A stretch of DNA of 64,000 bases, taken from the NCBI GenBank assembly GCA_038870975.1, contig JAVZJD010000002.1:32001-96000 (forward strand). The letters are read 5' to 3'. Below are positions 4,172 to 29,198 of this stretch, one piece after another (the first letter of the stretch is position 1; every line of letters begins with the position of its first letter). A program made the translations under genes and the position numbers. The notes under the pieces are model-generated. The model had not been told where the DNA came from. It ran no database searches and saw only the letters and a program-made list of their open reading frames with translations. The DNA comes from Candidatus Bathyarchaeia archaeon. GTDB taxonomy: Archaea > Thermoproteota > CALKCG01 > B24.

Positions 4172-4660
4172 TCATCTGGGAGATTTATGTTTTCTCAGTA
4201 GTCTACCGTCTTCGTCTATTTCACCTAGTTTCACTCTTGTGGAGGATATGGGTTTTCCATCTTCGGCTAAAACCATTGGAATCTTCACTATTTCAATGGT
4301 TTTCAAGCCCCGTGCTTCTCTAAGCCTGTTTATTTCCAAGGCTCTACTGTAGGTTTCATCGCTGACTACTATGGCTTCTACAGCCGGGTTGTATGCTGCT
4401 GGACCGTAGGGGTCTTCTATGGCTGTTATAATAGCTCTATCTTCCACTCGCATGTCTTCCAACAGCTTCTTAAGGCTTTCCAGTCTTTCAACGTAGGGTT
4501 TGACTTCATGGGCTTTCCCCATGCTTCTGGCAAATTTGTCTGTCGTAAGCCCTATGAGGACGTTATCTCCGAGGTTGAAAGCCGTAATTAGAAGCTCTCT
4601 ATGCCCCTTATGGATGGTGTCGAATGTACCTCCTAATGCGACGAGTCTGAATCTGCGCAT
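4172..4660 (-). CDS. coaD: Archaeal phosphopantetheine adenylyltransferase
   Basis: GGTFDTIHKGH (HxGH), IEDPYGPA, IVVSDET, EDGKPISSTRV. Confidence 0.9.
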   Translation of the reverse strand: MRRFRLVALGGTFDTIHKGHRELLITAFNLGDNVLIGLTTDKFARSMGKAHEVKPYVERLESLKKLLEDMRVEDRAIITAIEDPYGPAAYNPAVEAIVVSDETYSRALEINRLREARGLKTIEIVKIPMVLAEDGKPISSTRVKLGEIDEDGRLLRKHKSPR

Positions 4661-4693
4661 AGCTTCATGTAGTGTTTAAGAGAGTTTAAATAG

Positions 4694-5905
4694 TTAAGTA
4701 GTACTATTCGATGTAGTGGATTTTTCCAACCCTCTATGAGCCTGCATCAGTATTGCTAGTGCTACTGCTTGAGTTGAAACGGCGAATATCAGCGTTAAGA
4801 CTGGTTGTACGTTGAAGTCTATCATTAAGCCGTAGATGGCTCCGCTTGCTAGGAAGCCTACGCCGTAGGCTGCGTTGAAGATTCCATATGCCAATCCTCT
4901 TGAAGAGGTTTCTGTAAACGCTGAGACTGCTGCTCTGTATGTGGATTCTTGTACGCCTAAGACTACTCCGAAGAATATCGATGCGATTATTAGGGTTGTT
5001 AAGCCTGAGTTTAGCATCGTGAATACTGGTGGGAGTATTGAGAGTATGAAGGGTAGGGCTAGGATTTTAATGCCCAGTCTATCGTATAGGTATCCTGAGG
5101 TTAGGGCTGCTGGAGCGTCAATCCCCTGGATTAGAAGGTATATTAGTGGAACTATCCACTGCTGTTGCTCCGGCTGTAGTATGGCTGAGGCTTTGTACAG
5201 TATTAGCGATGCGGGGATTAAACCTACGGTGTTTAAAGTAACTGCTAGTGTGTAAACGTAGAATGGTTTTCTAAGGGCTTTATCGGCTTTTTTAACGTCT
5301 ACTGTAGGCTCCAGTACTGTTTTAGAGCCTATTCTCAAGTATGTGTATGTTAATGCTGCTATGAGTATTGTGAACGGTATTGTCAGTATGCTGAAGCTCA
5401 ACCTGTAGTTGTTTCCACTGTAGAGCATTAGCGTTGCCACTAGTAGTGGTCCTGCAACTGCTCCTACTTGGTCTAGGAATTCATGTATTCCGAATGCTTT
5501 ACCTGCCCCCATTCCTCTACTCACTATGGATATGATCGTGTCTCTAGAGGGTGATCTACAGGCTTTCCCAAGTCTTTCAAGCAGTACTAGGATTGCCGCT
5601 ATTTCCCATCCGTTTGCGAGGCCTAGAAGCGGTATGGAGGCTATAAGCCCATAGCCTATGAACATGAAGACCCAGTATGCTCTAGTGGTGTCCGCTAGGA
5701 AGCCGCTGATGAGTCTTGTAGCGTATCCTAGGAATTCTCCGAGTCCGCTGACGAGTCCTACGACGAATGCTGTAGCGCCTAGAAACTTCAGGAAGTCGGG
5801 TATTAGTCCTCTTGAGCCTTCGTATACTATGTCGCCCATTAGGCTTACTACTCCAAGGAGTAGGATGCTTACGTAGACGCTTCTCAATTCTATGGTGTGT
5901 TTCAC
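4694..5905 (-). CDS. MFS transporter
   Basis: About 12 hydrophobic segments, SGFLADTT motif A, LERLGKACRSPSRD; GTG 5905 preferred over TTG 5944 because a TATA-like CTTAAA lies between them. Confidence 0.85.
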   Translation of the reverse strand: MKHTIELRSVYVSILLLGVVSLMGDIVYEGSRGLIPDFLKFLGATAFVVGLVSGLGEFLGYATRLISGFLADTTRAYWVFMFIGYGLIASIPLLGLANGWEIAAILVLLERLGKACRSPSRDTIISIVSRGMGAGKAFGIHEFLDQVGAVAGPLLVATLMLYSGNNYRLSFSILTIPFTILIAALTYTYLRIGSKTVLEPTVDVKKADKALRKPFYVYTLAVTLNTVGLIPASLILYKASAILQPEQQQWIVPLIYLLIQGIDAPAALTSGYLYDRLGIKILALPFILSILPPVFTMLNSGLTTLIIASIFFGVVLGVQESTYRAAVSAFTETSSRGLAYGIFNAAYGVGFLASGAIYGLMIDFNVQPVLTLIFAVSTQAVALAILMQAHRGLEKSTTSNSTT

Positions 5906-6276
5906 GTTAGACCGCCAGTTTAAGCTAAGTATCGCATACTCCAACCATTAAAGTTTACTATTAAAGTTTAAACCTATTCTACGATATTTAGGGTTTGCCC
6001 TCTACTCTAATCGGTGGAAATACCTAGTCGACATCGCCTCCTTTATAACTTTAGGGTAAATATATAGGTGTAATTCAAATAGAAGGTGATAGTTCTTGTC
6101 CAAGAAAATAATACAACGCATGAGAACTTTCTCTTCCATATTCAGGAGATCAACACCAGAAGTAGTGAAAAAACAAGTTAAACTACCCTACACATTCAGA
6201 CCGATACTACCAGAGTATAAAATATATCGAAACATACTGGATTAAAGAACCCCTCTCAAAAATAACCATAGCCTCA

Positions 6277-7779
6277 ATGCCCGAGCTCGGCGGAGCATAC
6301 GGATACTTCATATCCGAAGTAGAACTTCTAGAAGAAGAGAGAAAAGTCACCGATAAACTCATAGACATGCTTTCATCAGAGCTAAAACCGCCAACGGTTG
6401 AAGAAGTAGACCTTAGAAAGCACGTACTAGCCGAAGCCGAAAGAATCATAGGCAAATACCGTTCAATGCTATCAGTAGCTAAAGAAAGCAAAGAAAAAGT
6501 ACTCTACTACGTCGAAAGAGACCTATTAGGCTTCGGACCGATACACGCAATGGTTTTAGACCCTAGGATTGAAGACATATCATGCGAAGGCGTAGGAGGA
6601 CCCGTATACGTATGGCATAGAGACTACGAAGGACTCCCCTCAAACCTAGTATTCTTAGACGCTAAATTCCTAGACGACCTAATAGTTAAACTCGCACACA
6701 TAGGCGGTAAACACGTTTCAACGGCATTCCCAATAGTCGACACCATGATATACGGTAAACACAGATTCGTAGCAACCTTCAAACGAGAAGTCACACCTAA
6801 AGGCTCTACATTCACGATAAGAAAATTCAGAGAAAAACCCCTATCGATAACCGAACTCGTAAAATCCCACACCGTAACCGCAAGAATAGCCGCATACTTC
6901 TGGCTCCTCCTCGAAAACAGAATGTCGATAATCATCATAGGGGGAACAGGAGCAGACAAAACAACACTTCTAAACGGACTAGCAAGCCTAATAAACCCAG
7001 CGATGAAAATATGCACAGTAGAAGAAATAGCAGAGTTAAACCTATCACATGAAAACTGGGTTCAATTCGTAAGCCGTGAAAGCTACGGCATCGGAGGCGC
7101 TGCTTCAAGCGCCATACCGCTATTCAGCCTTGTAAAGACAACACTCAGATACAGACCAGACTACATAGTCGTCGGTGAAGTAAGAGGAGAGGAAGCCTTC
7201 GTACTATTCCAAGCCTTAGCAACAGGACACGGCGGAATGTGCACACTACACGCTGAAGACGTAGACTATGCGATTAAAAAGCTTACAAGCCCACCTATGA
7301 ACGTAGCCGAAGTATACATACCTCTTATGAACGTAGTCGTAGAAGTCGAAAGAGTACATCTACCAAAGCCTGTAAGCGGAGCTACATTCGGAAGAAGAGT
7401 TAGAGAAGTATCCGAAATCATAAGCCACAAGGAGTTTCTAAAAGTCTTCTCATGGAACCCAATAACAGACGAATTCTCATCGAGGCTTGAGGAAAGCATA
7501 CTACTGAGGAAAATAGCCCTTAAAACAGGTAAAGACTTCCAAGACCTACTCGACGAAATAGACAAGAGAGAAGTAATAATCAGATGGATGGTTGAAAAGG
7601 GAATATTCCAAAACGAAGACGTAGCCAAAGTAATATCGCAATACTACATATCGCCAGATGCAATCTACAACGTAGCATCCATGGAGCTAGCAGTACCGAT
7701 AAAAATCAAACTACCTGCACTCGTGCAAATGGGTGAAAACCCATCAACGGAGAAGGAGGAAAGTCAAACCCCATCATAA
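6277..7779 (+). CDS. Type II/IV secretion (FlaI/VirB11-like) ATPase, probably degenerate
   Basis: DPRIEDISCEG, STFTIRKF, LRYRPDYIVVGEVRG, TGHGGMCTLHA; Walker A reads GGTGADKT; N-terminus from ATG 6120 appears frameshifted. Confidence 0.8.
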   Translation: MPELGGAYGYFISEVELLEEERKVTDKLIDMLSSELKPPTVEEVDLRKHVLAEAERIIGKYRSMLSVAKESKEKVLYYVERDLLGFGPIHAMVLDPRIEDISCEGVGGPVYVWHRDYEGLPSNLVFLDAKFLDDLIVKLAHIGGKHVSTAFPIVDTMIYGKHRFVATFKREVTPKGSTFTIRKFREKPLSITELVKSHTVTARIAAYFWLLLENRMSIIIIGGTGADKTTLLNGLASLINPAMKICTVEEIAELNLSHENWVQFVSRESYGIGGAASSAIPLFSLVKTTLRYRPDYIVVGEVRGEEAFVLFQALATGHGGMCTLHAEDVDYAIKKLTSPPMNVAEVYIPLMNVVVEVERVHLPKPVSGATFGRRVREVSEIISHKEFLKVFSWNPITDEFSSRLEESILLRKIALKTGKDFQDLLDEIDKREVIIRWMVEKGIFQNEDVAKVISQYYISPDAIYNVASMELAVPIKIKLPALVQMGENPSTEKEESQTPS

Positions 7780-7839
7780 CCCCCTCTTTTAAGAAAAACT
7801 TATCTCAAACAGTTAAACCCATTATATCATGATTGGAAA

Positions 7840-8757
7840 TTGTCAAGTACTAAACTGAAGGAAGAATTCCTAAAACTCCTAGAAACAGATAGAGAATTCA
7901 GATACCTCGTCATAAGCCATCTAGGACTAATAGAGCTAATAGAAGGGCAGAGGAAAATACTCGAAGAACTTAAAATCCTACACGAAAACCAGGAGAAACT
8001 ATGGGAGAATGCAAACAAGCTATGGGAAGAAGTTAAAAGCCTCAGAGAGGGGCAAGAGAAACTATGGATGGAGGTTAGACTTCTCAGAGAAGAACAGGAG
8101 AAGCTTTGGCAGGAGGTTAAGAACCTCAGAGAGGGACAGAACAAGCTTTGGGAAGAGGTTAAAAGTTTAAGGAAGGGCCAGGAAAAACTGTGGGAGAATC
8201 AGAACAAGCTATGGGAGGAAGTTAAAAGCCTTAGAGAGGGACAAGCGAAGTTGTGGGAGAATGCAAACAGACTATGGGAGGAAGTAAAACACCTCAGAGA
8301 AGGGCAGAACCGGCTATGGGAAAACCAGAACAGGCTCTGGAAAAGCCAGGAAAGAATGAGAGATGAGTTTAGATCTTGGACTATACAAGGATTCGGTGAA
8401 CTAGCAAAGTTTGCAGGGGTATCATTTAAAGAATTCGTTAGAAGCTTCCTAACTAAACACCTCAGAGAAATGGGCTTAATACCAGCAGATGGAGAATTGA
8501 AGAAAATAGTCATAGATGGGGAAGAGATAAACATCTTCTTTGAAAACCCACTTATAATTGGAGAAGTAACATCTAGCGTTGAAAGTATTGAAGAATTGGA
8601 AAAACTATTGAAGAGGGCGGAGCTTGCAAGGGAAAAGTACGGAAGAGAACCTATGAAATACCTAATCGCATTAACAGCCTCAGCCTCAATAGCCGATGAA
8701 ATTAAAGTGCGAGCTAAAATAAACAACGTAGAGCTAATCCTCGGAAAAATAAGTTGA
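7840..8757 (+). CDS. Heptad-repeat coiled-coil protein with C-terminal PD-(D/E)XK-like domain (DUF3782-like architecture)
   Basis: N-terminal LKEEFLKLLETDREFRY, 17 heptads, C-terminal EINI..IIGEVT. Confidence 0.75.
   Translation: MSSTKLKEEFLKLLETDREFRYLVISHLGLIELIEGQRKILEELKILHENQEKLWENANKLWEEVKSLREGQEKLWMEVRLLREEQEKLWQEVKNLREGQNKLWEEVKSLRKGQEKLWENQNKLWEEVKSLREGQAKLWENANRLWEEVKHLREGQNRLWENQNRLWKSQERMRDEFRSWTIQGFGELAKFAGVSFKEFVRSFLTKHLREMGLIPADGELKKIVIDGEEINIFFENPLIIGEVTSSVESIEELEKLLKRAELAREKYGREPMKYLIALTASASIADEIKVRAKINNVELILGKIS
7990..8346 (+). repeat. Coding tandem repeat: 17 units of 21 bp (11 xxxLWxx heptads such as QEKLWEE and 6 VKxLREG-type heptads)
   Basis: Directly visible in DNA and protein. 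Confidence 0.9.
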
Positions 8758-8880
8758 AATACAACACCTTGAAATAGAACAATAAAACATTCAACGTTTT
8801 AACCCATTTCTCACAGCGTATAGAGAGAAGAGTTAAATACTGCTACATTGTAAAGCGGACTTTAAAGGTGTCTTTCCCCC

Positions 8881-10173
8881 ATGTACGAAGAGATCCTTAA
8901 AATAGTTGAACAAATCCCCGTAGTAGATTCCCATGAACACCTCGCAATCCCAAGTAGCTATACAGCCCCCAGGGAGCCCATAGCCCTCCTACTGAGAGGC
9001 TACTTCCCAAGCGACCTACTTTCAGCAGGTATGTCTCCAAAAGAACTTCAAACCCTTCAAAACGATGAAGTACCCACTGAGGAGAAGTGGCCCATATTCA
9101 GAAAATACTGGGTTAAAACTGAGCATACAGCCTACGCTAGAGAAGTAAAGCATACTCTACGTATCTACGGCGAGGAAACCTTAAACTTGGAAAGCCTAAA
9201 AAGGCTCAGCCAGAAGATGAATAGACTCACAGGAGACCGAATCGTCGAATTCCTCGACTCTCTAAACATTAAAGCAGCTCTCGTCGATATACTCGGATCA
9301 TTGGACACATTGAAGCGCTTCCTCAAAGGCGAGGTCAAGCTACCGGAATGCTACAAGCCTCTAATACCGCTCCCAATATTTCATGAACCTGTAAGGTCTT
9401 TCTACAACATACAGAGTATAGCTGAAGTGGCAGGTAGAACTGTAACATGCTTAGACGAATTCCTAGAGGCCGTTAAAGAGATATTTAAACGTTTGAAAGA
9501 ATGCGGAGTGGTTGGTGTAAAAGACCAGAGTGCATACTACAGACGTATAGACTTCAACCTATCGAGAAGGGATGAAGCCGAGCGACTATTCAATAAATGC
9601 CTCAGAGACCCGAACAACAGCCTCGGCTGGCCTGAGGCAAAACCCTTAGACGACTTCCTATTCCACCAGTACATGAGGTATGCTAGAGAATTAAACCTAC
9701 CAGTTCAAATACACACAGGCCATATGGCTGGCATAAGAAACAGAGTAGATAAAGCCAACGCCGTGTACTTCATACGGGTTTTAGAACTACACCAGGATGT
9801 CAACTTCGACCTATTCCATGGAAACTGGCCCTACATGGGAGACCTACTATTCATAGCGAAAAACTATCCGAACGTGTACATAAACCTATGCTGGGTGAAC
9901 ATAATAGACCCAGTATACAGCGTAGAACTGCTGGAGAGAGCAGTAGTCACAATACCGCATAAGAAGATAAATGGGTTTGGAGGAGACTACTTCGCACCTG
10001 AAATACTACCAGCCCATCTATCTCAAGCCAGGGAAAACATAGCACGTGCACTATCAAACCTAGTATCGAGAGGATGGATTTCAAAAACAGAGGCCTTAAA
10101 CCTAGCGGCAGACTGGCTCTACAACAACCCCAACGAACTATTCAAACTGGGGTTGAAGCCCTACAGCCCTTAA
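8881..10173 (+). CDS. Amidohydrolase family protein
   Basis: VDSHEH, LPVQIHTG, FDLFHG, NYPNVY, GFGGDY. Confidence 0.85.
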   Translation: MYEEILKIVEQIPVVDSHEHLAIPSSYTAPREPIALLLRGYFPSDLLSAGMSPKELQTLQNDEVPTEEKWPIFRKYWVKTEHTAYAREVKHTLRIYGEETLNLESLKRLSQKMNRLTGDRIVEFLDSLNIKAALVDILGSLDTLKRFLKGEVKLPECYKPLIPLPIFHEPVRSFYNIQSIAEVAGRTVTCLDEFLEAVKEIFKRLKECGVVGVKDQSAYYRRIDFNLSRRDEAERLFNKCLRDPNNSLGWPEAKPLDDFLFHQYMRYARELNLPVQIHTGHMAGIRNRVDKANAVYFIRVLELHQDVNFDLFHGNWPYMGDLLFIAKNYPNVYINLCWVNIIDPVYSVELLERAVVTIPHKKINGFGGDYFAPEILPAHLSQARENIARALSNLVSRGWISKTEALNLAADWLYNNPNELFKLGLKPYSP

Positions 10174-10955
10174 ACCCCTAACGCCTCTCTAACCTCCCTC
10201 TTAAAATTCTCCCTATCCATGAATGAGGCTTTTATCGCCTTTCCATTAACAGCACACTGTGGAACCTGACCACGCTTCTCCACTTCTTCCACCTCCTCAA
10301 ACATATTTACCATTCTCACTGGAAGACCCGGCATAACCTCCCCTATCAAGTTTTTAATATGCTCAGCAAAGTACATACAGAATGGGCATGAAGGGTCATA
10401 GAAGATCAACCCTCTACCCTTATCCTCCGCCTGTGGAGTAAACACAGCCGTTTCAGGCTGGTAAACATACCCCTCCTCCATAGGGTAGTAGAGTAGAAAG
10501 GGTTCATCCTCTCTAACCTTTTTAAACCCCATCCTCAGGTAAAACTCATTCTGCGGATAATACCCGGGGACTTGAAAAGCCCATGTGACAAGAGCAAGTG
10601 GGAGCTTATAATCGAAGAATTCTCTAGGCTTTTTCACGTCTTCAATTAAAGCATTTAACAACGTCTTCCCAATACCCTTCCTCTGGTTCCGTCTATCTGG
10701 GACAAATATACAGGTTATCTCTAGAAGCCTCCTTTTAGGCTTAGGTTGATACTGTATTAAACCCACGGGTGTTGAATCTAAATAAGCCATTTTACCTATG
10801 CCTCCAAACACCTCTAACGACTTTCTCGCCCAAGCTCTTTTAACATTCGCGCCTTCGATAAAAACTCGTTCGCTTCTCTTCTCAGGTGGAATGCAAAGAC
10901 TTATTAGAGAATCAATATCTTCCAGTTCCACATCCTTTATCTTCCAAAACCCCAT
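10170..10955 (-). CDS. GNAT acetyltransferase with C-terminal thioredoxin-like (CPFC) domain
   Basis: ITCIFV..QRKGIGKTLL, FYLRMGF, DPSCPFC, AVNGK. Confidence 0.75.
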   Translation of the reverse strand: MGFWKIKDVELEDIDSLISLCIPPEKRSERVFIEGANVKRAWARKSLEVFGGIGKMAYLDSTPVGLIQYQPKPKRRLLEITCIFVPDRRNQRKGIGKTLLNALIEDVKKPREFFDYKLPLALVTWAFQVPGYYPQNEFYLRMGFKKVREDEPFLLYYPMEEGYVYQPETAVFTPQAEDKGRGLIFYDPSCPFCMYFAEHIKNLIGEVMPGLPVRMVNMFEEVEEVEKRGQVPQCAVNGKAIKASFMDRENFKREVREALGV

Positions 10956-11220
10956 TTAAAACCTCAGAACAATATCCTCTAAATGGTATAAAACATTTTG
11001 CTAAAAACTTAAAGTAAAATTGGATTTTAAGAAGGGAAAAGCGTTAAAAATGATTTAAAAATACAGCCGTTAAAGGTAGAAATATAGACGCCTGGTAAGT
11101 GCCGATTAATATTCTAATGAACCTATTCAAACTTGAGCAAGCATTCCTATAGCCCAAACAGACTTGATCGCTCAACCTTTATATAGCCGTGGGGGGTTTA
11201 ACTACAGTAGTGTACACTCC

Positions 11221-12000
11221 ATGGAGCTAAAGCTTCTCAAAGAAAAACTGCTAAACCTTCTAAAAGAAGATGAAGAATTCAGGTATGCTGTAGCAGGGCT
11301 CATAGGATTAGAAGAAATACTAAAGAGACTAGATAGGCATGAAGCTGAGCTTGTCAGACTTAGAGAAGACATGAACAAGGGGTTCGAGAAACATAGCGAA
11401 ATACTGAGTAGACATGAAGTTGAATTAATTAAACTAAGGGAAGATATGATGGAAGGCTTCAGAAGACATGATGAAATCTTAAGTAGGCATGAAGCCGAAC
11501 TGGTTAAACTAAGGGAAGATCTGTTGGAGGGGTTTAGAAGACACGATGAAATTTTAAGCAGACATCAAGCGGGGCTCGTTAAGCTTAGAGAAGATATGAT
11601 GGAGGGGTTCAACTTACTGAGGAGACACCTAGATGCCTTAGGCGCTAGATGGGGAATTTTAACTGAATCGGCATTCAGAAAGGGTCTTAAAGGAATCTTG
11701 GAGAGAGAACTAGGCTTAAAAGTTGAGAAATGGGTTAAATACGATCAGGAGGGTGAAGTCTTCGGATATCCAAGCCCCATAGACGTGGACGTAACCGTGA
11801 AAGATGGGAGAGAAATTCTAGTCGAGGTCAAATCTCACGTAGATAAAGCCGACGTCCGAATATTCGAAAGAAAGGTGAAATTCTACGAGAAAACCGAAGG
11901 AAGGAAACCATCAAGGCTGATAATAGTGACACCTTACGTAGACGACGATGCTTTAGAGCTGGCGAAACACTTGGGGATAGAAGTATACACGAACATCTAG
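11221..12000 (+). CDS. Coiled-coil repeat protein with PD-(D/E)XK nuclease domain (DUF3782-like)
   Basis: LLKEDEEFRYAVAGLIG, ALGARWG, IDVDV..ILVEVKS; ATG 11221 lies downstream of a TATA box. Confidence 0.85.
   Translation: MELKLLKEKLLNLLKEDEEFRYAVAGLIGLEEILKRLDRHEAELVRLREDMNKGFEKHSEILSRHEVELIKLREDMMEGFRRHDEILSRHEAELVKLREDLLEGFRRHDEILSRHQAGLVKLREDMMEGFNLLRRHLDALGARWGILTESAFRKGLKGILERELGLKVEKWVKYDQEGEVFGYPSPIDVDVTVKDGREILVEVKSHVDKADVRIFERKVKFYEKTEGRKPSRLIIVTPYVDDDALELAKHLGIEVYTNI
11335..11610 (+). repeat. Coding tandem repeat, about 3.7 units of 75 bp (RHEAELVKLREDMMEGFRRHDEILS)
   Basis: Directly visible in protein and DNA. Confidence 0.9.
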
Positions 12001-12274
12001 CAGTTTTAAGCGGTTATAATACTGCTCAATTCATGTCATACTTGTGGGATTCCATGAAGTTTTAGAGTCAATTACGTAGTTTAATTCCTAGGATGTTTAA
12101 AGCCACCTGTTTTGAAACAATTAGTGTCACCATCTCTATCTTCTGAGAAGACATATGTAATTCAACGTCTTTAATCGGCTACGCTTCAGTGGTTTTAGCC
12201 TAGCACTTCTAGGTAGTGAAACTACAGCTGAAAAGCTTAAATGGTCTTGGGATAAGTTCGTTATGGTGTGTTAG

Positions 12275-13210
12275 GTGGATGCTTTCAAGCTGAATAAGAG
12301 GTTAGGAAGAGGGGTTAACATACTCGGCTACGACCCGGTATGGAGGTCTAAGGATAGGGCACGTATGAAGGATGAGCATTTCAAACTCATAAGCGGTGCT
12401 GGCTTTAACAGTGTACGTATCGCACTCCACCCCCTCCGGGATGAAGCTATGAGTGAAGAATTTAAGCTTTCGAATAAGTGGTTGGAAGTTTTAGACTGGG
12501 CTATTGAACAATCCCTCAATAATGGTCTTGCGGCTATACTCGACTTTCACGAGTTTATAGCTATGGGTAAAGCTCCGCTAGAGAATAAGGATAAGTTCCT
12601 CTCCTTCTGGAAGCAGGTCGGTGAACGATACCGCGATTATCCAGATGAGGTTCTCTTTGAACTACTCAATGAACCGAACAGCAAATTGACACCAGAATTG
12701 TGGAATACCTTCCTTAAAGAAGCCCTCCAGCTGATCCGAGAGAGAAACCCCGAGAGAACCGTTATCATAGGACCCGCATACTGGAACAACATCAACCTTC
12801 TAGATAAGCTGACCCTTCCAGAAGACGATAGAAACATCATAGTAACCGTCCACTACTACGAGCCGATGGACTTTACACATCAAGGCGCTAAATGGGCTGG
12901 ACGGGAAAACAAAATCGGCGTAGAGTGGAGGGGAACGGATGAAGAGAAGAAAGCAATTATAAACTCTTTCAATAGAGCTCAGTCATGGGCGAAGGAACAT
13001 AATAGGCCGATATTCCTCGGAGAATTCGGAGTCTACGATAAAGCTCCAATGGAATCTAGAGTCCGATACTTAAGCTTCATCGCTAGACTTGCGGAAAGCA
13101 TGGGCTGGAGCTGGGCCTACTGGCAGTTCGACAGCGACTTCATATTGTACGATATACCGAACAATAGGTGGATAGAACCAGTATTAAACGCTCTAATTCC
13201 AAGAGGATAG
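12275..13210 (+). CDS. Glycoside hydrolase family 5 (endoglucanase-like), no signal peptide
   Basis: RGVNI, FELLNEP (acid/base), HYYEPMDFTHQGA, FLGEFG (nucleophile), WAYWQF. Confidence 0.92.
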   Translation: MDAFKLNKRLGRGVNILGYDPVWRSKDRARMKDEHFKLISGAGFNSVRIALHPLRDEAMSEEFKLSNKWLEVLDWAIEQSLNNGLAAILDFHEFIAMGKAPLENKDKFLSFWKQVGERYRDYPDEVLFELLNEPNSKLTPELWNTFLKEALQLIRERNPERTVIIGPAYWNNINLLDKLTLPEDDRNIIVTVHYYEPMDFTHQGAKWAGRENKIGVEWRGTDEEKKAIINSFNRAQSWAKEHNRPIFLGEFGVYDKAPMESRVRYLSFIARLAESMGWSWAYWQFDSDFILYDIPNNRWIEPVLNALIPRG

Positions 13211-13414
13211 CAATACCAGGTGAAATAACCACGAGGGGAAAAAGAGCACCAACAGATGGAGAAAGCAGTCTTTATGCCTCTCCCCTGCGAGTCGGTGAAG
13301 CTCACTTAACACTATTACTCCTCCAATAAGATTCCCCATGACCATAGTTTTTGGAAAACGTTGAGAAAATTCTTAAAAGTCAACGTGGATGATGTAATTT
13401 GAGAGGTTTTAAAG

Positions 13415-14071
13415 ATGATACGTGAAGACCATAGGAGACGTTTAACCGAAGAGTTTAAAAAGAAGTTGGAAAAACCCATTAGGCTCATCGTGTTCACGCA
13501 GGAAGTTGAATGTCCATTCTGTGCTCAAACAAGAAGCCTAATTGAAGAACTAGGCTCTCTGAGCGATAAAATAACCGTTGAAGTATACGACTTCATTAAA
13601 GACTCTAAAAAAGCTGAAGAATATGCAGTTGATAAGGTCCCAGCAGTAGCTATAGTTGGGGAAAAAGACTACGGTTTAAGATTCTACGGCCTACCATATG
13701 GATACGAGTTTCAAACACTCCTAGAGGCTTTATCCTATGTCTCAACGGGTAGGACAAACCTCTCAGAAGAATCTAAGAGGAAGCTGAAGACCTTGAAAAC
13801 AACAGTCCACATTCAAGTCTTCGTAACATTGACATGTCCCTACTGTCCATCTGTTGCAAGTCTAGCCTATAGATGCGCTGTGGAGAGCGACATGGTGAAA
13901 GCCGAAGTAGTAGATGTAAGCGAATTCCCACACCTCGCCTACAAATACGCGGTCATGGGCGTCCCCAAGACCATTATAAACGATAAAGTTGAATTCGTCG
14001 GAGCAGTACCAGAGAAACTATTCATAGACTACATTATGCTCGCCATAGGTAGCCCAGGATACATCCTCTAA
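13415..14071 (+). CDS. Protein disulfide oxidoreductase (two thioredoxin folds)
   Basis: CPFC and CPYC motifs, DKVPA, MGVPK. Confidence 0.9.
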   Translation: MIREDHRRRLTEEFKKKLEKPIRLIVFTQEVECPFCAQTRSLIEELGSLSDKITVEVYDFIKDSKKAEEYAVDKVPAVAIVGEKDYGLRFYGLPYGYEFQTLLEALSYVSTGRTNLSEESKRKLKTLKTTVHIQVFVTLTCPYCPSVASLAYRCAVESDMVKAEVVDVSEFPHLAYKYAVMGVPKTIINDKVEFVGAVPEKLFIDYIMLAIGSPGYIL

Positions 14072-14089
14072 AACGCCTACGGTGCAAGA

Positions 14090-14893
14090 TTGACCAGTAG
14101 AAGAGAACCCTTAAAACTAGTATTCATATACAGCGGTGAATTCGCAGAACGAGTCATAAGAAACCTCATAAACGACCCAAGCTTCTGTAAATCCTGCGGA
14201 TTATACTGCAACTCCTGCAAATACGGCTTATACAGCCATGTTCAGAACATACTAGCCGCGGTAAAGCTTCCAAACCCCTCAGACCTACCAGCGTTCATAG
14301 ATAAGCCCGAGGAGTATATGCCTAAATCAACCCCTAAAGCCGACATATGCGTAGCATCAGGCCTACATAAAGACCTACTGCTAGAACTACCACGTCACCT
14401 CAAAAAGACGGGTGTAAAAGCTTTAGTAGTTCCAGTGGAAGACTTCAATGAAGTACCAGCAGGCTTAAAGAGGCAAGTTGAAGAATACTGCTTAGAACTA
14501 GGCTTGGAAACGGCATTTCCCAAGCCTTTCTGCTCTTTAGAGCCCTCAGAAGATAAACCTCTAATCTCAAGATTCGTTGAAGAGCTTGGCGTAGGTAGAC
14601 CAAAGCTTGAGATATCCCTGGCCAGAAGAAGCGGGTATGAAATCATAGAGTATGCAATTGTCAAACGTAGTGCGCCGTGCGGCTCTACATGGTACGTAGC
14701 GAAAAAATTAACAAACGTTGAAACTAAGAGGGAAATCTTATACGACGCCATAGCTAGAGCCCACCACAGCTACCCATGCACGGCAACAATGAACATAGAC
14801 CCGGAAGCAAAAGAACCTATACTGCACTTAGGAGGCTACATAATAAGAGAAGAAGTTGAGAAAGCAATTGAGGGTGCTCTCCTCAGAACTTAA
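14090..14893 (+). CDS. DUF166 family protein
   Basis: FPKPFCSL, RSAPCGSTWYVA, HHSYPCTATM. Confidence 0.75.
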   Translation: MTSRREPLKLVFIYSGEFAERVIRNLINDPSFCKSCGLYCNSCKYGLYSHVQNILAAVKLPNPSDLPAFIDKPEEYMPKSTPKADICVASGLHKDLLLELPRHLKKTGVKALVVPVEDFNEVPAGLKRQVEEYCLELGLETAFPKPFCSLEPSEDKPLISRFVEELGVGRPKLEISLARRSGYEIIEYAIVKRSAPCGSTWYVAKKLTNVETKREILYDAIARAHHSYPCTATMNIDPEAKEPILHLGGYIIREEVEKAIEGALLRT

Positions 14894-23447: not shown

Positions 23448-23778
23448 GATTTAATACATGTAGATGAAGAGTTAAAGGAAGTAATCATAGATGGATAGGA
23501 GATAACATTTTTCCCTAGATTTTTCTGGTTTTCAAGGCTTTATTCGTCGGTTTAAAGTTTATCGAGAAATTGAAACTACTCCTTGATGGCATCGGAGTTG
23601 ACGTGCATAATTGGCTAGTGTCTTTCACCCAGCAGATTTTTTAAAGACTCTGGGGCAAGTAAACATTTGTTTCATCATAGAGGTGAAGTAGAATAAACCT
23701 CACCTGTTTTCAGTTGATGAAAGCATATTTCTGAAGATTATGGGCTTAGCAGTACATTCTCTTTGGGCGTTTGACCAG

Positions 23779-24267
23779 TTAAACGGTAGACCTTTTAATC
23801 TTAGGAAGAGTTTCAATAGTAAACTTGGCGATTTGTTCTTTTGTAAGTCCGTACTCCCCATTCAACTTACTTATTTTACCCTGTTTAAACATAGATGCAA
23901 GAGTATTATAGACTGTTTTCAAGGCTTTATTCGTTGTTTTAGCGAGCTCAGACGGTGTCAAAGACTCTTTACTCAGTTTTCCAAGTCTAAAACCTAAGTA
24001 GGCTCCTACTAAGCTCAGCATTATAGCGTCTTCAGCGGATAAATCCGTTCTCTTAAGAACTACTCCATTATCTGTTACTTGGAGAAATTCAGAACATTCT
24101 CTGATAAGCGTGTCAAAGTTGGGCTCGAAGACTATTTTCGAAATCGCCTCATAAGACGGGTATACTTTAGAAAGCCATTCAAAGAAAGCCCTTAAAACAA
24201 CGTCAGACTCGCCTTTGAAAGTTGCTTCTAAAGAGCCTATTTTAACATTCAACTCTATACTACTCAA
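23779..24267 (-). CDS. Winged-helix protein, paralog 4
   Basis: N-terminal IELNVKIGSLEATFKG; C-terminal LTPSELAKTTNKALKTVYNTLASMFKQGKI..YGLT; TTG after GGTGA. Confidence 0.75.
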   Translation of the reverse strand: MSSIELNVKIGSLEATFKGESDVVLRAFFEWLSKVYPSYEAISKIVFEPNFDTLIRECSEFLQVTDNGVVLKRTDLSAEDAIMLSLVGAYLGFRLGKLSKESLTPSELAKTTNKALKTVYNTLASMFKQGKISKLNGEYGLTKEQIAKFTIETLPKIKRSTV

Positions 24268-24757
24268 CAAGTTCACCTTTAAGCCTAGGTGCAACTTCAC
24301 TTATGAAGTACTTCAACCCCTTCGAAGTAATCCTATATTCGCCTCTTTCCACCTTCTCGACAAGATAACCATTCTGAAGCTCACTAAGTCTAGCGCTGAT
24401 AGAACTTTTAGATTTACCCAATCTTCCAGAGATCTCTTCAAGTGAAAGTGAAGCCTTATCGGATTTGCCGAATAGGTAGGCGAGATATTTAACGATCAAA
24501 ACTAGTAGACAGCCTTCGAAAATAGTCAACTTCTTCATATCGGCTAAAACAGTGGGTTCAGGATGTACTGTAACTAAATCCTTTAAACCCTTGGAGACCT
24601 CCTCTAAATCCAAGCTTAGAGTCAAATTTTTCACAAGGCTGAAAGTCGGATAGACGTCTGATATGAATTTGATAAGACTTCTCAAAACCTGCTCGGCATC
24701 CCCTGAAAACTCCAACTCTCCACCCTGGAATGAGACTTTAACTTTAACCTCGCTCAT
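24260..24757 (-). CDS. Winged-helix protein, paralog 3
   Basis: VKVKVSFQGGELEFSG; LSLEEISGRLGKSKSSISARLSELQNGYLVEKVERGEYRIT. Confidence 0.8.
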   Translation of the reverse strand: MSEVKVKVSFQGGELEFSGDAEQVLRSLIKFISDVYPTFSLVKNLTLSLDLEEVSKGLKDLVTVHPEPTVLADMKKLTIFEGCLLVLIVKYLAYLFGKSDKASLSLEEISGRLGKSKSSISARLSELQNGYLVEKVERGEYRITSKGLKYFISEVAPRLKGELVE

Positions 24758-25302
24758 AACATTCCTCCCCTAATCTTTGGGATAATCATCTTCTCAACCC
24801 ACATTTGACCTTGAGCTGAAAGCTTCCACACGACATCCTTCGGGTCAGGCTTGAAAACTCTACCCGATTCAGCCATCTCCTTAAGTCTAGCTGACACGTT
24901 TGAAACCTTAAAGCCCGAATTCTGCAAAAGTAGAGCTATAGTTTTAGGGTCAGACTTCTGCTCTTTAAATGCATAAAGTAGCAAACCTATAGCTTCATAC
25001 TGGCTTAACTTAGCCTTCTCCGAAGCCACTATCAAAGGACCGTCAACGCTCCACTCAATCAAACCCTCTAATAGGTTAGATGTCTGTGGAGCCTTTTCAG
25101 CAGCCTCGAAATGCTTGAACGTAGAAGGCTGAAAATCCTCTACAGTCAAACTACTTTTAAGTAACTCCTTAAAACCCATTGAAGAAGCTTCTTCTAAAGC
25201 CGTTTTAACAAGGCTGAGCTTTTCACGGAGTTCTTCAACCGTTGAAAACTCAAACTCTAGAGAGCCAAACCAAGACCGGAAGATCGCTTTTACTCCGCTC
25301 AT
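24754..25302 (-). CDS. Winged-helix protein, paralog 2
   Basis: VKAIFRSWFGSLEFEF; VSARLKEMAESGRVFK..WKLSAQG. Confidence 0.75.
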   Translation of the reverse strand: MSGVKAIFRSWFGSLEFEFSTVEELREKLSLVKTALEEASSMGFKELLKSSLTVEDFQPSTFKHFEAAEKAPQTSNLLEGLIEWSVDGPLIVASEKAKLSQYEAIGLLLYAFKEQKSDPKTIALLLQNSGFKVSNVSARLKEMAESGRVFKPDPKDVVWKLSAQGQMWVEKMIIPKIRGGML

Positions 25303-25390
25303 ATCTGTAGAAAAGATTAGATAAACCAGTATATAAATCTATTCAAAAAATCCTTTAAAATTCCCATATTTAAAAACACTTACATAACCT

Positions 25391-25489
25391 TTTTACCATA
25401 ATTTTCACGGATAAAAAAGGCGTGGTAAAATATTTAGGAATAAACTAGGAAAATTTTATTTAAATTCTACATGGTTTTATCCATAAAAC
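25391..25489. promoter_or_regulatory. Cluster of inverted repeats in the AT-rich spacer of the wHTH locus
   Basis: TTTTACCA/TGGTAAAA (25391-25430), GTTTTATCCATAAAAC (25474-25489), related TTTTCACGGATAAAA (25402-25416). Confidence 0.4.
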
Positions 25490-25526
25490 AGTTAATATTT
25501 CCTCCATTGAATACTTAAGTGAAAAC

Positions 25527-25931
25527 TCACAAACTTGGAGGCTTCTTCTGAATATACACGTATTTACCCTTTCTACCGCCTCTATACAGTATATCGCTTC
25601 TAACTAAATCAGCTAAAGTATGCGCAACAGCAGTCCTATCGTAGTGGAAGCCACGTTTACTGAGCTCTTCATGAACATCGCTGAGCGTCCTCCCAGTACT
25701 AAACCATCCGGTCCTCCAAAGATTGAGTAGAACACCCCTGCAAGTTGATGGAGTGGGCTCTTTAACAATTTCAAACTCAGGCTTACTAAGCTCTCTATCC
25801 AGTAGAGAGACGTTTTGAAATGCACTTAGAAATTCTTCAACAGTCTTCTTAAGCTGGTCTTCTCTACACTCAATCTCTGCTTCGACTCCTTGATACTTTA
25901 ACTTTATCCTGACTTTTCTATCGGATTCCAT
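25527..25931 (-). CDS. Winged-helix protein, paralog 1
   Basis: VRIKLKYQGVEAEIEC; GWFSTGRTLSDVHEELSKRG..VAHTLADLVRSDILYRGGRKGKYVY; ATG 25931 preferred as start. Confidence 0.75.
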   Translation of the reverse strand: MESDRKVRIKLKYQGVEAEIECREDQLKKTVEEFLSAFQNVSLLDRELSKPEFEIVKEPTPSTCRGVLLNLWRTGWFSTGRTLSDVHEELSKRGFHYDRTAVAHTLADLVRSDILYRGGRKGKYVYIQKKPPSL

Positions 25932-26008
25932 ATTCAACCACTTTGTTGATTGAACAATCAACAACAACACTTATAAGGGAGTACATCTACATATAGAGTG
26001 GTGATTGC

Positions 26009-27157
26009 ATGGATATAAACATTTCCCCCTCAACAAATCACTCTAAGGATGACCCTCAAAGTCTCCCATGGCTTAAAGAAATGCCCTACGTAAAACTCTA
26101 CCAAGAACTCGTCGACACAGGTACAGAGCTACTTCTCAATAGGCTTAAAACATATAGAAAAGAAGTTTACAAACTGGTAGATGAAGTCAAAAACAGGTTA
26201 AAAATATATAAAGCTGTTTACGACAAAGATGGACCTGCTTCTTCTAGAATAATCGGAGTAGATGCAGGGAGAAACGGAACAGAGTACAAATTCGCATACA
26301 TACCCCTATATGGAGCTATTGCGGTTCTAGTTGAAAACTGGGAGATTGTAGATGAACCACTGTGTGTAACAGGACCACCGGACGTATGGGCTTCAGAATT
26401 AGACCCAGATAAGCGTGAAAGTCTTCTACACATGGCTTTGGAATACCACGTAGCTACTAGAGCCGTAGAAAAGTGGAAACCAGACTATCTTCTACTTGAT
26501 GGGGGGATAGTACTCAACCCTAAACTCTACCCAGATTTCCAAGTTTCACCACAGTATGAAGGAGACTTCTACTTCACAGTCATTACTGTCCTCGAACTTT
26601 TAAATACCTGTAGGAAACTCCACGTTCCAGTTTTAGGCTTCGTTAAGCGTACACATATGAACTTCTACTCTTCATTCATGAGGAACAGTCAGATTAGAGA
26701 CTCAACACTGATGAACTTCATACTTAAAGAAGGCGAATACTCTGAACCCTTCAAAGTTGAAAACATAGTGGCTGAATCCTACAGAACTGTGGCTGAAAGC
26801 CTAAAATACGATAAAAGCCTTCCAGTCATATACTCAAGTTACATAAAGACGAGTTCAGCCCCGTTCAGAGTGGAGGTTCCAATGTTCTGTTTAAACAAAC
26901 TCGGAGAATTGATGTCCATCGTCTACACTATGGCAGGCTTCGACGGTATTCCATATCCTATACATGAAGCAGATAGGCTTTCAAGGATAACTAGACCAAC
27001 TTCGAACATACACTCTTTAGTACTCTACTCTAAAGCCTTAGAACTCGTCGAAAGCGGAGAAATGGAGCTTAAAGACCTAGACCTCCTAATGCTCGAGTAT
27101 GGTGAAAGCTGGACGTTAAACGGCAATCTTGAAGAACTTAGAGGTGGCGACGTTTGA
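26009..27157 (+). CDS. NurA-family nuclease
   Basis: IIGVDAG, LLLDGG, GFVKR, PFRVE, GIPYPIHEADRLSRI. Confidence 0.85.
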   Translation: MDINISPSTNHSKDDPQSLPWLKEMPYVKLYQELVDTGTELLLNRLKTYRKEVYKLVDEVKNRLKIYKAVYDKDGPASSRIIGVDAGRNGTEYKFAYIPLYGAIAVLVENWEIVDEPLCVTGPPDVWASELDPDKRESLLHMALEYHVATRAVEKWKPDYLLLDGGIVLNPKLYPDFQVSPQYEGDFYFTVITVLELLNTCRKLHVPVLGFVKRTHMNFYSSFMRNSQIRDSTLMNFILKEGEYSEPFKVENIVAESYRTVAESLKYDKSLPVIYSSYIKTSSAPFRVEVPMFCLNKLGELMSIVYTMAGFDGIPYPIHEADRLSRITRPTSNIHSLVLYSKALELVESGEMELKDLDLLMLEYGESWTLNGNLEELRGGDV

Positions 27158-28698
27158 AACAGATAGGCTACATACTGTCAGGTTGCGACCAAAGTAAAAT
27201 ATCTTTCGTAGTCATGGAGGATACCAGAGTCTACGTAAACAACTACTACTTCATAAACCATCCTTCAAGCTCAGCGGGAGAATTCAACCCAGTTTTACTG
27301 AGAGTCTATAAGATAACACCTTATAACCCTGAAATGACGATAGGAAGCTTCGGACCTATAGCTGGTAAAAAAGGTGAAAAAGCATACTACGGTAAAAAAC
27401 TCGAATATCTAGTAGCTTGGGCTGAAGTCTTAGGTTACATATCTTGGGATGGCAAATGGAGAAGACTCGAATGTAGTCCCAATACTTGGGACTCAATCTA
27501 CGAACCCACATACGAAGAACTAGAAGGATTCTTCATAAAACTCTCAAGCAAAAGCTTAACGGACAGAACAGACTTCCCAATAGCCATAGGCAGACACAGG
27601 GGTTTAAACATACCATTCCACCTAGATTTAAACGCCATAGCCAAAGGACATATTTTTGTCGCTGGAATGACTCGAAGCGGCAAGAGTACTTTTGTCTTAA
27701 ACCTTATAGCTAGAGCTCTTGAAAACGATTTAAAGCCTAGATTTATAATATTTGATAGAAGGTGCGAGTATTCCCTCCTGTCAAAATATGGAGCCACAGT
27801 ACTCCCATACCTCAGCTTCGTACCTAAAACCGAGTTGATCTCTCCAAGCCTTATAGTGTCTAGGCTTGGCTTAGATCCGAATAAGGCTGAAGGGAAGCTT
27901 CTATGTGAAGCTTTAAACTCCATGAGAGCTGACGGCTCCGATTTAACTACTAAAAACGTACTAAGAAGATGCGTAGAACTCTCCCCATACTTGGTTTCAA
28001 GAGGCAGGGATTCAATTCTATCTAAGATTAGATGGATTCTTGAGAAGCGCGGAGACACAGTATTCACGGAGGAGCATAAGCCTTTAAACATCTTAGAAGT
28101 GCTTTACGATAAACCAGCTGTAATCGTAGACTTCTCAGTCGATGCCAACATTGAAGACCAACAGCTTACCGCTAAATACTTGATACGCGAGGTTGTAAAC
28201 CACGCTATTAAGTGTAGAGCTACTGGAGATTTTGCCACAATATTTGTAATAGAAGAAGCACAGTACTTCGTACCTGAGAGAGGACTTAAAATAGAGGTTG
28301 GAAACCCTGAGAAAACAGGAGTAGATAAACAACTAATAGAAGCAATAAGTCAAGCTGGAGGATACAACGTAGGCTTTATAATAGTTACACAGAGACCTGC
28401 TTACATTTCAAAGTCAATAATATCACAGTGTAATACGATAGCGGCCTTCAGGCTTATGGCTGGCAACGACCAAGAAGCAATCATAAAATACTCTGAATAC
28501 GGAAGTGAAAGAATGAGCGACTACCTACCTGGACTGGCGGATCATGAAGCCCTCATATGGGGTATGGCGTCGCCAGTACCATTCCCAGTCACAGTAGAGA
28601 TAGATGTTAAGGACTATCCGTCTAAAACAGGAGTGACGGCTAAAGTATCATGGGAGAGGATGAACCTTAAAACATCAAACCTTAAAATCCAACATTGA
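27154..28698 (+). CDS. HerA-family ATPase (HAS-barrel + FtsK/HerA fold)
   Basis: HIFVAGMTRSGKST (Walker A), FVIEEAQ (Walker B), IVTQRP, SQCNT; start overlaps the NurA-like stop. Confidence 0.88.
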   Translation: MKQIGYILSGCDQSKISFVVMEDTRVYVNNYYFINHPSSSAGEFNPVLLRVYKITPYNPEMTIGSFGPIAGKKGEKAYYGKKLEYLVAWAEVLGYISWDGKWRRLECSPNTWDSIYEPTYEELEGFFIKLSSKSLTDRTDFPIAIGRHRGLNIPFHLDLNAIAKGHIFVAGMTRSGKSTFVLNLIARALENDLKPRFIIFDRRCEYSLLSKYGATVLPYLSFVPKTELISPSLIVSRLGLDPNKAEGKLLCEALNSMRADGSDLTTKNVLRRCVELSPYLVSRGRDSILSKIRWILEKRGDTVFTEEHKPLNILEVLYDKPAVIVDFSVDANIEDQQLTAKYLIREVVNHAIKCRATGDFATIFVIEEAQYFVPERGLKIEVGNPEKTGVDKQLIEAISQAGGYNVGFIIVTQRPAYISKSIISQCNTIAAFRLMAGNDQEAIIKYSEYGSERMSDYLPGLADHEALIWGMASPVPFPVTVEIDVKDYPSKTGVTAKVSWERMNLKTSNLKIQH

Positions 28699-28848
28699 TA
28701 TTTACCTAGAACTACTTTTGTTGCAGTACCATTAAGAGAGCTAAACTAAGCTTCATCATAATACAGAGAAAGTAAATTAGAATTCCACAGTTTGACGTAA
28801 GATTCTTAGAGTTCTACAAGTAAAGTCTTTATATTTTCCATTCAAAAG

Positions 28849-28941
28849 AAAATTCACCTGAGGAAGCTTGAAGAGGCCCGAAAAGAGATGGTGGAAGATT
28901 CAGGCATAAGCCTCGAAGACCTCATTGAAGAGATAGGCTGA
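28849..28941 (+). pseudogene. Antitoxin C-terminal remnant
   Basis: KIHLRKLEEARKEMVEDSGISLEDLIEEIG* ends 6 bp before the RelE-like gene; N-terminal part not found. Confidence 0.5.
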
Positions 28942-28947
28942 CAATAA

Positions 28948-29198
28948 ATGTTTCAAGTAATCGTATCTCAAAGAGCCAGAAACTCCCTGAGCACTACAAA
29001 AGAAGGATTATTGAGCTACTCTTAATTTTTCGTGAAAATCCGGTTCCAGCCGAATATTATGACGTAAAAAAGCTTAAAGGATGCGCAGATATTTATAGAG
29101 TTAGAATCGGCGATATTCGAGTGATCTACGAAATATTATGGGACCTTAATATGGTTCATGTATTACTAGTTGAATGGAGAGAAAGAGCCTACCCTTAA
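28948..29198 (+). pseudogene. RelE/ParE family toxin, frameshifted
   Basis: MFQVIVSQRAR, then a shift near 28980 into LPEHYKRRII..DVKKLKG..YRVRIGDIRVIYEI..RERAYP*. Confidence 0.8.

Follow-up and report, generated by a model that had tools for sequence, protein, structure and literature searches.

In this work we analysed a stretch of 64,000 nucleotides (referred to here as the window) from a Candidatus Bathyarchaeia archaeon (GenBank assembly GCA_038870975.1, contig JAVZJD010000002.1, positions 32,001 to 96,000 of the forward strand), and in particular a locus of six genes that encodes four small proteins, W1 to W4, and a nuclease-ATPase pair, NurA2-HerA2 (Table 1). It can be described as a HerA-NurA system whose partner family and control element are both undescribed. 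The six open reading frames (ORFs) delimited by an initial annotation of this DNA were all found at the same positions. The W2 and W3 genes overlap by 4 nt, as do nurA2 and herA2, and W3 overlaps W4 by 41 nt if the GTG start of W4 is used, or by 8 nt from the TTG at 24267, which is the start favoured by the orthologues. The ATG codons of W1 and nurA2 are placed head-to-head 77 bp apart around a symmetric TATA, an arrangement already pointed out in that annotation and confirmed here by the sequence.

Table 1. Genes and sequence elements of the W1-W4/NurA2-HerA2 locus (positions in the window; aa, amino acids; N-module, N-terminal hairpin-helix module)
Feature	Position	Strand	Description
W4	23779-24300	-	173 aa, or ~162 aa from TTG 24267; last gene of the W2-W3-W4 operon
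W3	24260-24757	-	165 aa; N-module and MarR/PadR-like winged helix with flanking helices (model)
W2	24754-25302	-	182 aa; first gene of the W2-W3-W4 operon
Gap upstream of W2	25303-25526		224 bp, AT-rich, non-coding; presumed W2-W4 promoter region
W1	25527-25931	-	134 aa from ATG; GTG 25970 is a longer alternative start
Divergent control region W1/nurA2	25932-26008		77 bp
Perfect 10-2-10 palindrome, TTGTTGATTG-AA-CAATCAACAA	25943-25964		22 bp; six bases from the TATA
Symmetric TATA, CTTATAAG	25970-25977		Single, shared
Third W-box, TGGTGATTG	25999-26007		Touches the nurA2 ATG
NurA2	26009-27157	+	T2 type nuclease, 382 aa; M25 at 26081 is a possible true start
HerA2	27154-28698	+	T2 clade ATPase, 514 aa; start overlaps the nurA2 stop

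The control region between W1 and nurA2 presents several repeats of one short sequence, TGKTGATTG, which we call the W-box: three of the 25 sites of this kind in the genome lie within 65 bp here. The arms of the palindrome are invariant in six genomes belonging to two genera, its 2-bp centre varies (AA, AG or TT), and the DNA past the TATA diverges. No further copy of the palindrome was found in the 1.85-Mb genome, allowing up to 4 mismatches. Single W-boxes are not enriched, as the 25 observed compare with about 35 expected by a rough scaling, and none was seen when the sequence of the gap upstream of W2 was read. A genome-wide W-box signal similar to that of the FtsK-orienting polar sequences (KOPS) was also considered and dropped, the box being at or below chance frequency outside this promoter. 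In archaea the TATA is centred about 26 nt upstream of the start site, and therefore both divergent start sites would fall on or beside a W-box. Furthermore, Bathyarchaeia loci carrying the enzyme pair that is usual beside W1 (the TW pair, see below) share the blocks TTGGTGAATCTTGGTGATTGAACAA and CATGCACAACA, whose component 8-mers appear in 39 to 58 of the 70 W1-nurA spacers (of ~175 bp) of other species and in fewer loci in the ~8 kb of surrounding DNA. The spacers of Nitrososphaeria-type loci present a related TTGCGCAA-type element beside the TATA.

The initial annotation described the four small proteins as paralogues with a shared N-terminal module and a C-terminal winged helix-turn-helix (wHTH), and this description is supported by profiles and by the AlphaFold models of W1 and W3. 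In profile-profile comparisons (hhalign), W3 and W4 matched over their full length (E 2e-39), W2 and W3 over the C-terminal ~105 residues (E 4e-15), and W2 and W4 with E 3e-6. W1 matched W4 (E 1.7e-6, 90% probability, 119 columns) and W3 (1.7e-3), and the comparison of W1 with W2 was not significant. Judging from these profiles, W2, W3 and W4 are certainly paralogues and W1 is a more distant member of the family. The marks by which we recognise the family, namely the N-terminal hairpin-helix module, a linker, the C-terminal wHTH and linkage to NurA-HerA, were all found here. The model of W1 (predicted local distance difference test, pLDDT, of 74) consists of a beta-hairpin (residues 6-23), a helix (24-39), a disordered linker and the wHTH (64-128), and most of the 17 invariant residues of this protein are in the wHTH (GYHYDRTAVxHxLxDLV). 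In the model of W3 (pLDDT 87.9), the hairpin and helix of the N-module are followed by extra helices and by a winged helix with flanking helices. The alignment of W2 orthologues keeps the N-terminal strand-strand-helix and the wHTH, with an insertion of ~25 aa after the N-module in the genus of the window, and orthologues of W4 are found at its place in the locus in five genera of the order.

None of the four W proteins reaches the cut-off of any curated family in Pfam, PADLOC or NCBIfam. W2 has no match in these three collections, neither W1 nor W2 matches any Pfam wHTH family, and the best Pfam matches of W3 are sub-threshold (HTH_24, 17.2 bits for a cut-off of 21.9; TrmB, 15.2 for 25.6). 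Sources that name W1 homologues all call them "hypothetical". Comparison of W3 residues 71-165 only by VIA-align gave Z scores of 10.7 to 9.5 with MarR, BldR, AF1382 and AspA, and of 10.7 to 9.0 with many MarR/PadR chains; as modelled, the C-terminal domain of W3 is a MarR/PadR-like wHTH. The W3 profile searched against the sequences of the PDB found generic winged helices only (CooA, IdeR-like and AspA, the last with E 4e-4), and the W1 profile found no match there. Foldseek searches of the PDB with both models gave no match at E <= 0.001, the wHTH of W1 having weak matches to Fur, BlaI and ScpB-type winged-helix domains (E > 0.01). The N-module had no match when the whole W1 and W3 models were searched by Foldseek and VIA-align, a result that does not include any search of the module alone. 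Prediction of a complex of W2, W3 and W4 with W1 as partner gave a score of 0.01, with no controls run, and speaks neither for nor against a complex. Elsewhere in the genome, outside the window, an ORF of 104 aa (C2:136384-136705, C2 being the contig of the window) has very weak matches to the W3 and W4 profiles (E 0.004-0.008) and ends 7 nt before one of the seven TTGKTGATTG boxes of the genome.

With respect to the enzymes, NurA2 matches the Pfam NurA family (PF09376) with 65.2 bits for a cut-off of 21 (8.4e-18), over positions 3 to 254 of the 254 of the profile, and HerA2 matches DUF87/HerA (PF01935) with 47.8 bits for a cut-off of 23.2 (2.6e-12). In alignments of 16-17 T2 homologues, at least 90% conservation was observed for D85 (GVDAG), E137, D164-G165 (LLLDGG) and A321-D322 of NurA2, residues that were assigned to the active site by motif resemblance, as the search of PDB sequences with NurA2 gave no true match and hence no solved NurA chain. 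Among the same number of homologues and to the same degree, HerA2 conserves Walker A (G171 and G176-K177, in GMTRSGKS), Walker B (E367-E368, in VIEEA) and the arginine R414 (TQRP). Of the solved structures, those closest to HerA2 are HerA chains, with E values from 2e-12 to 4e-8. These scores and conserved residues agree with the initial annotation, in which the two genes overlap and retain their catalytic motifs. NurA2 is present in the 16 other genomes of the order, with 47-90% identity. Its first 22-25 codons align only within one family (f1), homologues from other families aligning from residue ~22, and where these codons lie (26009-26081), the DNA of the order's other families has a second TATA-like box and a CAACAA element; from the alignment, the true start of NurA2 may be M25.

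Several HerA2 orthologues carry inteins, which in general are found in conserved replication and repair proteins. These were observed in the same genus (L037:9133-12288), in another family of the order (L046:9094-13293) and in two more loci (L045 and L047). One intein, with a LAGLIDADG domain, is inserted at about residue 168-173, just before the Walker A of the HerA2 orthologue, and L046 has a second one near residue 415-422. The HerA2 of the window is intein-free.

The pair under study is not the only one in this genome. A canonical nurA-herA-mre11-rad50 operon, with strong family scores for Rad50, Mre11 and HerA, lies on the same contig (C2:119968-126599), ~65 kb from the module, and no mre11 or rad50 was found within the NurA2-HerA2 locus. 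Thus, as the initial annotation had stated, the pair stands apart from mre11-rad50; to its question of whether this could be the sole canonical herA-nurA the answer is no, NurA2-HerA2 being an extra pair. A six-frame search of the whole genome with hidden Markov models recovered two NurA genes only, and the only W genes were the four of this locus. The scores obtained with the NCBIfam repair equivalogs are far under the cut-off (HerA2 with NF040819, 47.7 versus 970; NurA2 with NF041033, 21.9 versus 400). The canonical paralogues of the genome are also under the equivalog cut-off, yet they score much higher (231 bits).

In the 401 Thermoproteota genomes sampled, the W1 profile was found in 121. 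It fills whole families (24/24, 15/15 and 16/17 genomes) and the complete order of the window (17/17, including the genome of the window), whereas beyond Bathyarchaeia and the Nitrososphaeria-type lineages few of the sampled families have it (2/57, 0/23, 0/17 and 0/16 genomes, among others). In a collection of one genome per species, W1 was recovered in 417 stretches with titles of Bathyarchaeia or Bathyarchaeota and of Nitrososphaerales, Nitrososphaeria or Thaumarchaeota. Within the order, W1 is divergent to NurA2-HerA2 in 13/13 loci from six genera, and W2-W4-type genes follow in five of these genera. In 13 further families, W1 is head-to-head with genes for a NurA-like protein of ~350 aa and a HerA-like protein of ~485 aa in all 20 loci, usually with one to three extra W genes nearby. 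When the count was extended to the species-level loci whose upstream DNA reaches 1.5 kb or more, W1 was divergent to NurA-HerA in 71 of 72. Where W3/W4-type genes are not adjacent to W1 they are present elsewhere in the genome, and the candidates for extra W genes beside W1 in loci that seemed to have none proved not to belong to the W family. The W1-bearing genomes examined also hold the canonical operon from nurA to rad50, with up to four pairs per genome. The neighbourhood includes gatE across lineages, to which the Nitrososphaeria-type loci add ogg, an rsmB-like methyltransferase gene and a gene for a PUA protein in the same string.

The initial annotation had proposed to look at the conservation of this neighbourhood, and had named two outcomes that would speak against its module: a linkage lacking in other genomes, or a pair that is the sole canonical herA-nurA next to unrelated wHTH genes. 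What was found is a linkage that extends to many other genomes, and a canonical operon that exists separately. To read the six genes as a functional module is therefore fair, and on balance we think it probable that they form a chromosomal module for DNA processing, inherited vertically, with an active NurA-type nuclease and a hexameric ATPase of the HerA type. A search of the literature on NurA or HerA with winged helices, in Thaumarchaeota or Bathyarchaeota, did not retrieve a description of the module, which is not proof of its novelty.

Another aspect to mention is that the enzymes next to W1 are not the same in all lineages. As we mentioned above, the pair usual beside W1 was named TW; that of the window was named T2. 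Both are about 20% identical to each other, and they form separate clades in the HerA tree (support by the Shimodaira-Hasegawa-like approximate likelihood ratio test, SH-aLRT: TW, 100; T2, which includes HerA2 of the window, 96; canonical, 94). T2 is present in 31 of the 401 genomes, namely that of the window (G000), the other 16 of the order, and scattered members of other families. TW HerA was found in none of the 17 genomes of the order, where the best matches (55-65 bits) correspond to canonical HerA, compared with E ~1e-200 in true TW members. Since HerA2 is T2, the usual partner is TW, and TW is missing from all 17 genomes, the tree and the searches indicate that in this order the enzyme pair has changed clade, from TW to T2, with W1 and the control DNA kept in place. 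We believe that such a swap under a conserved W1 is new.

W genes accompany both clades elsewhere. Co-directional operons with the order W2-W3-W4-W1'-nurA-herA were found in four lineages, in one case with a start that overlaps nurA by 4 bp; in G182 and in two genomes of family f23 the pair of the operon is T2. In G042 (98% complete), a string of ten genes on the reverse strand (L102, G042:C1:29000-45000, positions 3653-14221) reads W2-W3-W4-W1'-nurW-herW-nurA2-herA2-mre11-like-rad50-like, in which the Mre11-like metallophosphoesterase has 402 aa and the Rad50-like protein 694 aa, and its HerA-type and Rad50-type genes are the only ones of that genome. We infer that deletion of nurW-herW from an ancestral tandem like that of G042 could have produced the layout of the window. 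T2 pairs without W neighbours are also without the box. Such is the T2 pair of family f19, which is followed by a conserved calcineurin-type metallophosphoesterase of 220-230 aa (L097:6218-6916, L098:8746-9432, L099:8668-9327); in G056, of the same family, the pair is preceded by one more HerA-like gene, the third, and by a gene of 390 aa without a Pfam match. In addition, the 75-100-bp gap between W1' and nurA2 in co-directional operons has a conserved hairpin-forming element (TAACGCACC...GGTGCGGCGG), located at L101:9660-9790(-), L105:6215-6320(+), L106:7985-8090(-) and near position 5770 of L098, with a second hairpin in two loci. This element may be a site of RNA-level control or processing.

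To explain these observations, we consider most likely, and somewhat probable in absolute terms, that W1 is a regulator that binds its own operator. W1, probably as a dimer, would bind the 22-bp palindrome and the third W-box, which flank the single symmetric TATA, and in this manner would control its own gene and nurA2-herA2; we infer that a bound dimer could shut both promoters. NurA2-HerA2 would be a machine for unwinding and resection of DNA ends, in repair or in replication-associated processing, and W2 to W4, as translationally coupled paralogues, could be further DNA-binding partners, co-regulators or adaptors. A palindromic operator that is unique in the genome and surrounds a shared TATA points first to transcriptional control by W1, and the conservation of W1 and of the control DNA through the change of clade fits a protein that acts on DNA and not on one enzyme surface. 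Together, the operator and the survival of W1 through the exchange of enzymes favour an action of W1 at its own promoter.

Several observations weigh against this proposal. DNA binding and regulation by W1 are deduced from sequence. Four paralogues kept over class-level distances exceed the needs of simple autoregulation, and W1 itself keeps 45-50% identity from one class to another, far more than the enzymes that would be under its control. In some lineages the W genes and the enzymes are in one operon. The spacer motif of Nitrososphaeria-type loci is different, which does not speak for one universal operator. There are also proteins in which a HerA-like ATPase is fused to a W1-type wHTH, and the conservation counts given above overstate the support, since related genomes are not independent.

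Part of these observations agree better with an adaptor function, which we regard as a possible though tentative alternative. According to it, the W proteins would be physical subunits, and a homo- or hetero-oligomer containing W1, assembled through the beta-beta-alpha modules, would dock on HerA or NurA to load or aim the machine, much as the related motor FtsK is steered by its gamma domain, a C-terminal winged helix. Both functions are non-exclusive, as an adaptor W1 could also autoregulate. The co-directional operons of four lineages, the presence of W genes beside TW and T2 alike, the persistence across classes of at least four orthologous groups of W proteins, and a W1 more conserved than ordinary local regulators are all in line with it. 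On the other hand, W1 stayed 45-54% identical while the neighbouring enzymes became a pair of ~20% identity, which is hard to conceive for a tight and specific interface, and the only strong W-box cluster of the genome is the promoter of W1, single boxes not being enriched. The initial annotation had proposed a wHTH complex of this sort, loading the helicase-nuclease: the module and its linkage hold, whereas the hetero-oligomer and the loading are conjectural, the palindromic operator pointing first to transcriptional control.

The fusions mentioned above are rare, and they are the one piece of evidence that hints at direct coupling of a W1-type domain to a HerA-type motor. A word-based search for fused W1 forms of 278-2000 aa found none, which is weak evidence against an adaptor, and an exhaustive search of 1.84 billion representative proteins with the W1 profile gave 1002 matches at E <= 0.001 and 121 at <= 1e-10. 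Among them were five long proteins whose C-terminal part is a W1-type wHTH (P0141, P0128, P0162, P0192 and P0140). P0141, of 479 aa, has an N-terminal P-loop of the DUF87/HerA type (39.4 bits for a cut-off of 23.2; matches to HerA structures at E 4e-7 to 2e-4), its C-terminus is a wHTH of the W1 type (E 1e-22), and its relative P0128 has a Walker A motif and a weaker DUF87 match under the cut-off. Proteins of this kind (479-550 aa) are compact HerA/FtsK-type ATPases, similar to packaging ATPases (PHROG 2666), and the series of small unannotated ORFs at the locus of P0128 (L196:6001-7500) gives it the look of a virus or an integrated element. The fused ATPases are thus short and packaging-ATPase-like, placed among small unannotated ORFs resembling a mobile element, and they are not HerA2 orthologues, which weighs against the adaptor function. 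An even broader proposal, for which we would give a lower probability still, is that the W set constitutes sequence-reading loader or adaptor subunits for HerA-type translocases, with W1 as a trans-acting counterpart of FtsK gamma, and that the W set and NurA-HerA form an unrecognised machine of chromosome processing (repair, replication restart or chromosome resolution). If true, this loader machine would be common to Bathyarchaeia and ammonia-oxidising archaea, and one lineage would have exchanged the enzymes and kept the adaptors.

A role in defence against viruses, with HerA-NurA as effector and the wHTH proteins as sensors or regulators, was offered as an alternative in the initial annotation, and we consider it unlikely to a high degree. 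HerA2 does have its best matches with the anti-phage HerA models of PADLOC and NCBIfam (100 and 72 bits) and with solved HerA chains of the defence type, and a decayed toxin-antitoxin remnant adjoins the pair. However, these scores are far under the equivalog cut-off (NF042943, 72 bits versus 800). The PADLOC search, suggested by that same annotation, gave only generic, sub-threshold HerA matches, with none for NurA2, W1 or W2, and no effector of the Sir2 or DUF4297 type accompanies the pair. Furthermore, W1 is near-universal within whole families and lies in a stable housekeeping neighbourhood (gatE, ogg, rsmB-like), it has no homologue in phage and plasmid collections, the module of G042 is linked to mre11- and rad50-like genes, and the flanks of the module in the window are metabolic genes. 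In the PHROGs, matches were generic only (a wHTH regulator for W3, and packaging-ATPase or FtsK-like families for HerA2). Whole-family presence, housekeeping neighbours and the lack of a system-specific model match therefore speak against defence.

A chance proximity of unrelated wHTH regulators to a spare NurA-HerA pair could be imagined, wHTH genes being common and the C-terminal domain of W3 being a generic MarR/PadR-like fold, but it is made very improbable by a linkage found in practically all species-level loci, across classes and two enzyme clades. Least credible of all is a pair serving spacer acquisition with clustered regularly interspaced short palindromic repeats (CRISPR), as the CRISPR-linked paralogous nurA-herA pairs documented in Pyrobaculum and relatives (PMC3396285) might suggest together with weak matches of W3 to Csa3/CARF-wHTH models, obtained via the wHTH only: the 64-kb window has no CRISPR-like repeat array, the only Cas1 match of the genome is ~390 kb away, and there is no csm6 between nurA2 and herA2, which overlap.

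The canonical HerA-NurA system (herA-mre11-rad50-nurA of Sulfolobus and Pyrococcus) consists of the same two families, with adjacent and overlapping genes, conserved acidic residues and Walker A and B motifs, and the T2 pair of G042 is likewise directly upstream of mre11-like and rad50-like genes. The system described here differs from it in that HerA2 belongs to a separate clade, is not beside mre11-rad50 and has dedicated wHTH partner genes; to our knowledge, and after a literature search, no such partner genes have been described for the canonical one. In Thermoproteales, three or more vertically inherited nurA-herA pairs are present per genome, one of which is the repair operon (Bernick et al. 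2012, PMC3396285). For this reason an extra pair is not new in itself; what is new are the W partners. Compared with the nurA-csm6-herA cluster of Thermoproteales, the locus of the window is without csm6 and CRISPR linkage, and the wHTH set is unmentioned in the passages of that paper that were consulted.

The Sir2-HerA and DUF4297-HerA anti-phage systems are similar in having a HerA-type hexameric ATPase with a nuclease-type effector, and they are the best solved relatives of HerA2, but here the partner is NurA and the distribution is lineage-wide and syntenic, not patchy. FtsK belongs to the FtsK-HerA superfamily, and its C-terminal winged-helix gamma domain reads KOPS sites. The rare fusions of a HerA-like P-loop with a C-terminal W1-type wHTH would share with it the layout of a motor plus a winged helix, by analogy only, whereas in the module the wHTH belongs to a protein distinct from the motor, which has an oligomerisation-like N-module of its own, and no genome-wide oriented motif was found. 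A divergent gene with a palindromic operator is the typical layout of MarR/PadR autoregulators, on which the domain of W3 can be superposed. These differ from the W family, which has no Pfam wHTH membership and in which W1 is without dimerisation helices of the MarR kind. Finally, the C-terminal 95 residues of W3 also superpose on AspA, the archaeal DNA-spreading adaptor matched by the W3 profile as given above.

Other features were observed around the module. In other families of the order, an unrelated gene of ~230 aa fills the gap between W1 and W2; it lacks a Pfam match except in one genus, where it is ThiI, and it bears no relation to the genes found 3' of T2 elsewhere. Downstream of herA2, at 28810-29198, translation reveals what appears to be a frameshifted RelE/ParE-like toxin-antitoxin remnant. 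The body of the toxin (YRVRIGDIRVIYEI...VHVLLVEWRERAY) forms an open frame only if no start codon is required and is preceded by a short antitoxin-like frame, and the likely ATG of the toxin (28948) is in another frame and meets a stop after 25 codons. The decayed pair noticed by the initial annotation is thus visible, its family assignment being based on translation and not on a family score. In addition, two direct copies of a 27-nt sequence, with 93% identity and an exact match over 20 nt, lie at 23528-23554, in the non-coding gap 3' of W4, and at 23915-23941, within the W4 coding sequence.

In archaea, HerA-NurA takes the place of the end-resection step of recombination, and the upkeep of several paralogous pairs calls for an explanation; in the case presented here, the extra pair has its own conserved set of undescribed DNA-binding proteins and a conserved control element. 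The exchange of the pair under a conserved W1 and operator represents a natural experiment on modularity. The locus also provides a handle on non-canonical HerA-NurA, since its operator is defined and its products amount to four small soluble proteins plus two enzymes. The W set occurs in Bathyarchaeia and in the ammonia-oxidising Nitrososphaeria, two groups that are ecologically dominant and include culturable members. The module, which recurs in hundreds of archaeal species, marks an unstudied housekeeping pathway of DNA processing rather than a defence island.

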